Positions 44,518-46,407 of a DNA stretch of 64,000 nucleotides are shown piece after piece. Numbering within the stretch: position 1 is the stretch's first letter; every line of letters starts with the position of its first letter. A program made the position numbers and the translations under genes. The stretch is from Dictyostelium discoideum. Taxonomy: Eukaryota. The DNA lies in assembly GCA_000004695.1 (NCBI GenBank), contig CM000152.2:6272001-6336000 (forward strand), written 5' to 3'. The notes beneath the pieces were generated by a model. It was not told where the DNA came from. It was given only the letters and a program-made list of their open reading frames with translations, and made no database searches.

Positions 44518-46407
44518 ATGTTTACAGATCAAAGAAAAGATAAAAAAGCGGTATTATATTTAAAAAGAAAATTATCAGTTTTAGAATGGATAAAGGATTT
44601 TTTCAATCAAAATAATGAAGTTATTGATAGAGGTTGTAATGATTTAATACAATTGATTGAAGATGGTGTTGTGTTGTGTAAATTAATAAATTTATTTTTT
44701 CCAGGTAGAATTGACAAAATAATTTATCCAAAATCTATGGGATCAACAAAATATTTCTTACGTATTGAAAATATAAATTCATTCATTTCTCAATGTCAAA
44801 GATTTGGAGTACCAGTTATCTTTCAAACATTGGATTTATTTGAAGGTAAAAATCCAGTGCGTGTTGTAAATTGTATTCATAGTTTAATAGAAATGTTTGA
44901 TCCAAATAATAATTTAAAAGATAGAATCATTAATAAAAAGAATAAATTCTCAATTGAGGAAATTTCAAGAGCAAATTTAGAATTACAAATTGAAAAAGAA
45001 GCTTCTGGTAAATCATTATCAATGATTCTTTATGATACAATTAATCCTTCTTTAAATAATAATAATTCTAATGATGATGATACAAATAATAACACTACAT
45101 TAAATGATTATTCAACAATTAATACTCAAAATATTATTCAACAAACTCCACTTCAACCTTTAAAATCTTCAATGATTCAAACCCCATCTCACCCAAGTAC
45201 AATTAAAAAAGTACAATATCAAGATCAACAACAATCATTATCACAACAACAACAACAACAACATCAACAGCAACAGCAACAACAAGCAGAATCACAACCA
45301 GAACCAAATTCTAATATATCATTTTTGAAAACTCCATCAATTAATAATCTTAATAATCTAAATGACCCTAATAATAATATTAATAATGGTAATTTTGGAA
45401 CAGTACAATATCAAATGACAAATTCAAATACATATGAGAGTAGCAATTTATCAGTATTAAATACATCACATCTTAGAACTACAATTATTAAAACACCATT
45501 ATCAAGAATAAATAATAATAATAATAGTACTATTGGTGGTGGCATGAGTACACCAAACAATTATCAAAGTACTCCACAAATTCATCATACACCAGGTTTT
45601 CCTTTATTTCAACAGGATATGGCGACGTCATCAATGATGAAAACAGCATCAATTAGTACAGTTCCAGTTAAAACTTCTCCTTCTCCAATTTCTTCTAATA
45701 ATTTCGATAGTAGATTCATTACAAATTCAACCTATAGTAATAGATATACTAATATAGGTCATACTGGTATAAATCTTAATGAAAATAATAATAATAATAA
45801 TAATAATAATAATAATAATAATAATAATAATAATAATAATAATAATAATAATAATAATAATAATAATAATAATAATAATAATAATAATAATATAAACTTT
45901 GATAAAAGTAATAATTTAAATAATAATCAATATAATAATTTTACACCATATAGACCATCATTATCTACAAGAACTATATCATCAACCACCGCCAACAATA
46001 ATAATAATATTAATAATATTAGTAATAATAACAACATTAATTTTGATAGTGACTTAAAGTTAAATGATTTAAATTCAACAACATTATCTTCAAGAACAAA
46101 ACAAAATGATGAAACTATTATTAGACAAAAAAAAGAGCAAGAGGAGATCTTATTAAAACAACAACAACAACAACAACAACAACAACAACAACAACAACAA
46201 CAACAACAACAACAAAAAATATATCAAGAAAAGGTTAAACAACAGCAACAACAAAAATTAATAACACCAACAAGGACATGGTGCAAAGATAGTTTTATAT
46301 TTTTAGTTTTAATGATATCAATTTTTATTTGGTTATTCCTTTATCTTGATAATAATTTAAAATTAAATATAAAAAAAGTTTTGACTATCAGGAGCGATTT
46401 AAATTAA
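44518..46407 (+). CDS. Calponin-homology (CH) domain protein with a C-terminal transmembrane anchor (tail-anchored). The long middle region is N/Q/S-rich. Single exon.
   Basis: The ATG at 44518 was verified. The N-terminal ~120 aa (LEWIKDFF...DLIQLIEDGVVLCKLINLFFPGRIDKI...FISQCQRFGVPVIFQTLDLFEGKNPVRVVNCIHSLIEMF) has the CH-domain pattern. A hydrophobic helix FIFLVLMISIFIWLFLYL lies about 25 aa from the C-terminus. Confidence 0.6.
   Translation: MFTDQRKDKKAVLYLKRKLSVLEWIKDFFNQNNEVIDRGCNDLIQLIEDGVVLCKLINLFFPGRIDKIIYPKSMGSTKYFLRIENINSFISQCQRFGVPVIFQTLDLFEGKNPVRVVNCIHSLIEMFDPNNNLKDRIINKKNKFSIEEISRANLELQIEKEASGKSLSMILYDTINPSLNNNNSNDDDTNNNTTLNDYSTINTQNIIQQTPLQPLKSSMIQTPSHPSTIKKVQYQDQQQSLSQQQQQQHQQQQQQQAESQPEPNSNISFLKTPSINNLNNLNDPNNNINNGNFGTVQYQMTNSNTYESSNLSVLNTSHLRTTIIKTPLSRINNNNNSTIGGGMSTPNNYQSTPQIHHTPGFPLFQQDMATSSMMKTASISTVPVKTSPSPISSNNFDSRFITNSTYSNRYTNIGHTGINLNENNNNNNNNNNNNNNNNNNNNNNNNNNNNNNNNNNNNINFDKSNNLNNNQYNNFTPYRPSLSTRTISSTTANNNNNINNISNNNNINFDSDLKLNDLNSTTLSSRTKQNDETIIRQKKEQEEILLKQQQQQQQQQQQQQQQQQQQKIYQEKVKQQQQQKLITPTRTWCKDSFIFLVLMISIFIWLFLYLDNNLKLNIKKVLTIRSDLN

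Follow-up and report, generated by a model that had tools for sequence, protein, structure and literature searches.

Actin tethers that combine a calponin-homology (CH) head with a C-terminal membrane anchor are, to our knowledge, known mainly from animals (nesprins and calmin) and from interaptin of Dictyostelium, and all of them carry a tandem CH1-CH2 pair. In canonical KASH proteins the luminal peptide after the transmembrane (TM) helix is about 30 residues long, and its C-terminal PPPX (VPT in plants) binds SUN. Calmin (CLMN) has been shown experimentally to tether tubules of the endoplasmic reticulum (ER) to actin (PMC10849733). A fragment of Rng2 comprising residues 1-189 binds F-actin with a Kd of 0.9 uM, and the CH fragments of Rng2 and IQGAP1, known as ‘curly’, bend actin filaments only if they are tethered to a fluid membrane, which was achieved with artificial tethers (PMC8315802). 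According to a 2025 review, no KASH protein can readily be identified in Dictyostelium, and interaptin is unlikely to bind Sun1 (PMC11816917). Here, we describe a gene of Dictyostelium discoideum that lies at 44518..46407 on the forward strand of a stretch of 64,000 nucleotides (assembly GCA_000004695.1, contig CM000152.2, positions 6,272,001 to 6,336,000; hereafter the window, to whose first letter all positions refer) and encodes a protein with a single N-terminal CH domain and a single C-terminal TM helix. Our favoured reading, held with about even confidence, is that this is a tail-anchored (type IV) protein of a dictyostelid-wide family, likely inserted in the ER, which ties its host membrane to actin.

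The gene is a single unbroken open reading frame (ORF) of 629 codons, from ATG to TAA, and constitutes a complete single-exon coding sequence (629 aa plus the TAA stop; 44518..46407, +). The identical gene is annotated in two NCBI records at chromosome scale, one of them CM142509.1 of assembly GCA_054883475.1, close to the end of which the window maps. The composition of the window, with about 20% G+C and long AAT and CAA repeats, is typical of Dictyostelium, and the protein itself consists overall of about 19% Asn. The N-terminus MFT(D/Q)QRKDK is kept in the orthologues described below, which identifies the ATG at 44518 as the true start. Both public records of the gene carry no Pfam domain, and no description of the 629-aa protein was found in the searchable literature, which did not include the inventory of Dictyostelium CH proteins by Friedberg and Rivero (2010) that may list the gene.

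The CH domain, of type 3, spans residues 18-127 (44569..44898, +) and is recognized by PF00307, by sequence matches in the PDB and by Foldseek. An earlier note on this DNA, made from the letters alone, had claimed an N-terminal CH domain and proposed a PF00307 search as a check. On the full 629 aa the Pfam scan returns no CH match, and the match is lost only once the polyQ-rich residues 501-629 are included; residues 1-179 give 67.1 bits (cutoff 26, E 1.8e-18, residues 18-127) and the fragments 1-250, 1-400 and 1-500 give 63-66 bits. The full-length miss is a false negative, a filter artefact of the polyQ/polyN-rich C-terminal part, and it probably helps to explain the lack of annotation in the public records. 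The proposed check, misleading on the full-length protein, thus succeeds on its fragments (63-67 bits). An independent CH profile, made only from relatives outside the family, detects the domain in the full-length protein too (residues 2-164, 133 bits), and the PDB sequence matches comprise Rng2, transgelin-2, calponin, IQGAP1, ARHGEF6/7 (PIX) and Vav, so that the domain claimed in the earlier note is borne out. In all of the scans a single CH stretch was found, and not a tandem CH1-CH2 pair. The core is preceded by a helix, FTDQRKDKKAVLYLKRKLSVLEWIKDFFNQ (residues 2-31; 44521..44610, +), modelled with a predicted local distance difference test (pLDDT) score of 88-94 and packed on the core, which resembles the N-terminal extension of IQGAP and Rng2; the alignment with Rng2 begins at query residue 5.

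At the opposite end of the protein, the single TM helix SFIFLVLMISIFIWLFLYL (residues 592-610; 46291..46347, +), which contains the invariant Trp605, is recognized by hydropathy, shuffling, insertion energy and conservation. Its mean Kyte-Doolittle hydropathy of 2.66 was reached by 2 of 20,000 composition-preserving shuffles, and its summed Hessa insertion energy is about -4.2 kcal/mol, the next-best segment of the protein reaching +8. The helix is followed by a predicted luminal tail of 19 residues, DNNLKLNIKKVLTIRSDLN (46348..46404, +), in which Asn612 completes, in the alignment, a W-x6-N signature. The TM helix had been anticipated, at about 25 residues from the C-terminus; the helix is confirmed, and the distance is corrected to 19 residues. 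Hydropathy analysis revealed no signal peptide or hydrophobic N-terminus, the N-terminus being hydrophilic. With its sole TM helix 19 residues from the C-terminus and no N-terminal signal, the protein has the sequence layout of a tail anchor, and its insertion would therefore be post-translational. Such an insertion would leave the entire N-terminal part in the cytosol, and we infer an Ncyt/Clumen topology. The charge flanking the TM helix is more positive N-terminally than C-terminally, and the tails start acidic in most members of the family; a strongly hydrophobic TM segment with mostly acidic tails would favour the ER tail-anchor pathway over mitochondria or peroxisomes. The earlier note had also considered that an unannotated intron might account for the hydrophobic segment. 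This alternative was dismissed: the ORF is continuous, the TM helix and the tail are conserved as protein in every orthologue and in a 95%-identical copy, and dN/dS is below 1.

When residues 1-180 were used as the query of an exhaustive HMMER search, 1,152 CH proteins were retrieved, headed by a distinct group with 50-58% identity and with the CH domain at the extreme N-terminus. This group consists of orthologues from Tieghemostelium lacteum, Heterostelium album, Acytostelium subglobosum, Cavenderia fasciculata and Polysphondylium violaceum, five genera in which the protein is annotated only as hypothetical or ‘CH domain-containing’. The orthologues have in common, in this order, MFT(Q/D)QRKDK with the CH domain, a helix following it, a first and a second linker motif, and a C-terminal TM helix with a short tail. 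The post-CH helix motif RIINKKNKFSIEEISRANLELQIEKEAS (residues 136-163; 44923..45006, +) is defined by the six-species alignment, its helix proper (146-163) having a pLDDT of 90-94; the family consensus is R..KR(K/R).EF(S/T).EE.ARA..EL, with R136, F144, E147, E148, A152, E155 and L156 invariant. Linker motif 1, TVQYQMTNSNTYESSNLSVLNTSHLRTTIIKTP (residues 295-327; 45400..45498, +), is conserved in the six species with the consensus TVQ.Q.SNSN.YESSNLS.L.TSH.RTT...TP and with Q297, N304, Y306, E307, S312, H318, R320, T322 and P327 invariant. The conserved linker motif 2, ATSSMMKTASISTVP (residues 369-383; 45622..45666, +), has the consensus ATSS.IKTA.IS..P, with T370, A377 and P383 invariant, and in the full-length model it forms a low-confidence predicted beta-strand pairing with motif 1. 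The window protein possesses every feature by which the dictyostelid CH tail-anchor family is defined here, N.YE..N.S and IKTA.IS..P included.

The tail-anchor layout is the same in four of the orthologues and ambiguous in the Heterostelium model. The latter, PPL_07006 (L004:1501-7061; 1,410 aa), has a splice donor set right after ENHDKLN; if the sequence is instead read through, a stop is reached 37 residues after the TM helix, and the downstream part is made up of two repeats of a ~450-aa module with no relation to the family. The model is therefore probably a fusion with the next gene. The gene order tRNA-intron endonuclease, P-type ATPase, CH gene is the same in the window, in Tieghemostelium and in Cavenderia, and the locus is therefore ancestral to Dictyostelia.

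The family probably reaches beyond the sampled dictyostelids, to judge from a conceptual translation of the 4.6-kb contig L007 (run SRR6399524, Logan; 34% G+C), whose product, P0121, is the nearest outgroup in the tree. By removing one canonical 71-nt GTAAGT..TAG intron (L007:1685-1755) from L007:1157-2076, a protein of 271 aa is obtained that is 28% identical to the window protein and shows the N-terminal helix signature, the CH domain, a Ser-rich linker, a C-terminal TM helix, the six-residue tail HNEATL and W-x6-N. The architecture foreseen in the earlier note, a single CH domain plus a tail anchor, accordingly holds in each dictyostelid group sampled and in the L007 protein. A metagenome scan comprising 80 CH loci yielded no close relative, and none of the 76 environmental CH ORFs whose stop codon lies inside the contig ends in a TM helix, which indicates that the CH plus TM combination is uncommon and not a by-product of CH abundance. 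A word-indexed search with the block alignment recovered only the known dictyostelid members and one partial sequence; with the conserved blocks outside the CH domain it gave no match at E <= 0.01, the known members being missed as well. Separately, a few protist proteins, three environmental (P0092, P0095 and P0123) and one of Stenamoeba stenopodia (P0136), combine two calponin-type CH domains with a Pro/Ser-rich linker and a C-terminal TM helix, without W-x6-N; they apparently represent a second, undescribed CH-plus-tail-anchor architecture.

Selection on the gene can be estimated against the 95%-identical syntenic copy of ‘Dictyostelium cf. discoideum’ (GCA_054859205.1), from which dN/dS is 0.15 in the CH region and 0.29 overall, values that point to purifying selection. 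This same copy is the origin of a very improbable explanation, namely that the gene is a decaying or non-functional, lineage-specific one whose ORF is intact by chance in this strain. The cf. discoideum orthologue (L001:6001-8024) differs at its 5' end, contains three frameshifting indels (-1, -7 and +37 bp) and was annotated as two separate genes, 115 and 478 aa long; scattered partial CH copies and the Asn content of the protein also fit decay. The 629-codon ORF is intact in the window, and the architecture and synteny are conserved across all Dictyostelia; together with the low dN/dS, this argues for a maintained gene. Moreover, at least one of the indels is located within a homopolymer (A5 to A4), and a CAA repeat is the site of another, both being places where assembly errors typically occur. 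As for the partial copies, cf. discoideum has two extra ones of the CH region, at L001:2643-3153 and L002:7043-7504, where the window has a single copy; one is fused to the gene model of the P-type ATPase and the other lies close to the end of a contig, and these differences may reflect either true decay and duplication or assembly error.

The six species also bear on the luminal side of the protein, where the only invariant residues outside the cytosolic part are Trp605, in the TM helix, and Asn612, just after it; the W-x6-N signature is found in all six species and in the L007 protein. These sole invariant non-cytosolic residues, at the luminal end of the TM helix and just after it, are what could make the protein a non-canonical, KASH-like protein of the outer nuclear membrane, whose W-x6-N luminal segment would engage Sun1 or another luminal partner, the CH domain linking the nucleus to actin, and which would be the missing Dictyostelium partner of the LINC (linker of nucleoskeleton and cytoskeleton) complex. 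The architecture parallels that of nesprins and interaptin, and the lack of a readily identifiable KASH protein would leave such a place vacant. We nevertheless regard this explanation as improbable. As the earlier note had rightly observed, the tail is unlike KASH: it ends in SDLN and not in PPPX, and neither the full-length protein nor its fragments gave a significant KASH Pfam match. The orthologue tails measure 9-23 residues and their extreme C-termini are not conserved (SDLN, LSSL, PIGV, TPIK and HIGK), and canonical SUN binding requires a conserved free C-terminus. In addition, the review of the Dictyostelium nuclear envelope mentions no calponin-homology protein (PMC11816917). Membership of the KASH-domain family (PF10541) was rejected on the tail, its 19 residues being without PPPX and those of the orthologues without a conserved ending. 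Equally improbable in our view is a bolder combination, in which a membrane-anchored, IQGAP-type ‘curly’ module on the outer nuclear membrane or the ER would organize or bend actin, while W-x6-N would engage, for example, Sun1, giving a KASH-functional LINC partner in Amoebozoa with a mode of binding unrelated to PPPX.

The favoured reading, a membrane-actin tether, draws on the subtype of the CH domain. A model of residues 1-180 was obtained by AlphaFold2 (AF2) from a 35-sequence alignment (pLDDT 87.7; predicted template modelling score, pTM, 0.82), and in it a long N-terminal helix and a post-CH helix are both packed on the CH core. At E <= 1e-3 Foldseek matches only the CH domains of IQGAP1 (3i6x) and Rng2 (1p5s), over 155-166 columns that include both flanking helices; calponin and transgelin follow, and all four rank before the tandem actin-binding domains, as befits a type-3 domain. 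By per-domain score, the closest CH domains outside the family (55-74 bits, query residues ~5-165) are N-terminal ones of IQGAP-type proteins, the carriers having RasGAP and RasGAP_C or being fragments of such proteins with filamin repeats, and multi-CH calponin-like proteins reach at most 49 bits per domain. The two flanks are 24% and 23% identical to the IQGAP-like group vs 20% and 14% to the calponin-like one, and the post-CH motif is similar to the IQGAP-like ‘(K)V.FSEEEL..A..EL’. If the type-3 head bound F-actin, as the CH domains of IQGAP1 and Rng2 do, the protein would tie its host membrane, be it the ER, the nuclear envelope or an ER-derived compartment, to actin filaments; the disordered linker would act as a long flexible leash, and the two conserved linker motifs may be docking or regulatory sites. 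The parallel with ‘curly’ is suggestive, a lead rather than evidence.

Several observations weigh against an actin tether of this kind. The fold match to IQGAP1 and Rng2 may be biased, IQGAP-like sequences having been included in the modelling alignment. Compared with the PDB, the family profile scores about 52 bits with calponin/transgelin (core only), 47 with Rng2 and 36 with IQGAP1; in a distance (neighbour-joining) tree the family forms a separate clade, intermediate between calponin-like and IQGAP-like groups, and the identity of the CH core to the two groups is equal. The basic cluster after the CH domain (residues 136-146, 44923-44955), strongly basic in orthologues (KRRLKRKKEF, NRRMKRRKEF), is degenerate in D. 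discoideum, where it reads RIINKKNKF. The length of the TM helix varies among orthologues from 17 to 29 residues, and the destination membrane is not readable from sequence; if the indels of cf. discoideum were real, the gene would be dispensable there. Type-3 CH domains are, furthermore, functionally heterogeneous, and the CH domain of calponin is dispensable for actin binding. In Dictyostelium itself, GxcDD's type-3 CH domain does not bind actin and associates with membranes (PMC1914345). The domain thus appears to be an extended type-3 CH with IQGAP-like flanks, for which, on sequence and model, the IQGAP subtype is only partly upheld.

These same observations make room for a tail-anchored scaffold, in which the CH domain would be a protein-protein or lipid module, as in Vav, PIX, calponin and GxcDD, recruiting a signalling or trafficking partner, with the linker motifs as functional sites. 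Type-3 CH domains often do not bind actin, GxcDD being the case at hand, the family profile is as near to calponin/transgelin as to IQGAP, and the linker motifs are strongly conserved. We consider the scaffold possible, although rather less likely than an actin tether, since per-domain score and fold both place the domain nearest to the actin-binding CH domains of IQGAP and Rng2, flanking helices included, and a CH domain that binds membranes would be redundant beside a TM anchor. Far less likely still is a microtubule-binding tail-anchored protein, with a CH domain acting as in EB1, Ndc80 and Spef1. It is true that some CH domains bind microtubules and that CAMSAP_CH gives a weak match, which at 18 bits stays below its cutoff of 27. 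On the other hand, the EB1-type CH appears only at fold rank 28 with E 0.07, far below IQGAP, calponin and actin-binding CH domains, and the sequence relatives are all of the calponin/IQGAP class. Having considered these, we retain the membrane-actin tether as the favoured reading.

Two family assignments were tried and rejected. The protein is not an IQGAP, as neither PF00616 nor PF03836 nor an IQ motif was found in the full length or in any fragment; true IQGAP-type matches (P0059, P0079 and P0102) do carry RasGAP-related and RasGAP_C domains. Nor does it belong to the calponin/transgelin family, having no calponin (CLIK) repeat PF00402, one of which is present in the true member P0003. No leucine-rich repeat was found in the full-length Pfam scan. 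It may be added that the basic post-CH cluster of the orthologues resembles a classical nuclear localisation signal, and that it is also like the basic actin-binding motif of transgelin.

Between the post-CH helix and the membrane, the protein is mostly of low complexity. A linker predicted to be disordered, from composition and from a pLDDT below 50 over 164-526, covers residues 164-525 (45007..46092, +); its ~360 residues are 29% Asn and include a 36-residue polyN tract (nt 45784-45891). The full-length AF2 model, which rests on a shallow alignment (pLDDT 46), was used only for the pattern of disorder and helices. The linker is followed by a long juxtamembrane helix with a 19-residue polyQ tract (residues 526-580; 46093..46257, +; pLDDT 86-96), which is missing from all orthologues (alignment columns ~660-727) and appears from the alignment to be a stalk specific to the discoideum lineage. 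As to the neighbourhood, in the window as in cf. discoideum the P-type ATPase and the CH gene are separated by a DUF5898 gene of 490 aa (in the window at 42029-43501, -). It is missing at the corresponding position in Tieghemostelium and Cavenderia and looks like a lineage-specific insertion; a 659-aa paralogue of it adjoins the CH fragment in L002. Farther downstream, the G+C content of the window peaks (39% vs ~20%) at a 788-aa ORF with an N-terminal RNA-recognition motif (RRM; 53570-55936, -), which is overlapped by several long ORFs on both strands, the likely cause being repeat-driven composition.

If the favoured reading is correct, the family, conserved across Dictyostelia, would have arrived independently at a way of tethering membranes to actin, with one IQGAP-like CH domain on a tail anchor, in a genetically tractable amoeba. 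This would bear on the links between actin and the endomembranes or the nucleus in Dictyostelium, where no KASH protein is readily identifiable (PMC11816917), on a natural membrane-anchored counterpart to the actin-bending activity of IQGAP CH domains (PMC8315802), and on the origin of the IQGAP-type CH domain. A CH domain is missing from DGAP1, GAPA and IqgC, and in IqgD its place is taken by a fimbrin-type pair (PMC13299636).

Compared with known systems, the dictyostelid protein is analogous to calmin, nesprins and interaptin and not homologous with them. The layout of calmin is similar, a CH-based head at the N-terminus being joined through a long disordered region to a short TM helix at the C-terminus; unlike the dictyostelid protein, calmin, which has been described as specific to vertebrates, has a tandem CH1-CH2 of the alpha-actinin type, and the two are not homologous beyond the CH fold. 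Nesprins and interaptin, nuclear-envelope proteins of the KASH or a KASH-like type, are similar in their N-terminal CH-based actin-binding head, their C-terminal anchor and the cytosolic position of the part that binds the cytoskeleton, whereas they have tandem CH1-CH2 domains and spectrin or coiled-coil rods, and nesprins end in PPPX; in the dictyostelid protein only one CH is present, the linker is disordered, and the tail of 19 residues has no conserved C-terminus. LRCH1 and LRCH4 are alike in that they have one CH domain, of type 3, and in some isoforms a putative TM helix at the C-terminus (PMC7536344), and differ in having leucine-rich repeats at the N-terminus and the CH domain near the C-terminus. 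In calponin and transgelin (SM22, Scp1), too, one type-3 CH is present and an ‘EF(S/T)EE’ segment comes after it, and their CH domains have a profile score as good as that of Rng2, but they are soluble and without a TM helix, and the dictyostelid protein is without PF00402. The CH domains of IQGAP1 and Rng2 are the nearest solved structures, flanking helices included, and the nearest non-family sequences per domain, although the identity is 25-28% and the dictyostelid protein is without a RasGAP-related domain, RasGAP_C and IQ motifs; the CH fragment of Rng2 was tethered to membranes artificially in vitro, whereas the dictyostelid protein is predicted to be membrane-tethered naturally.

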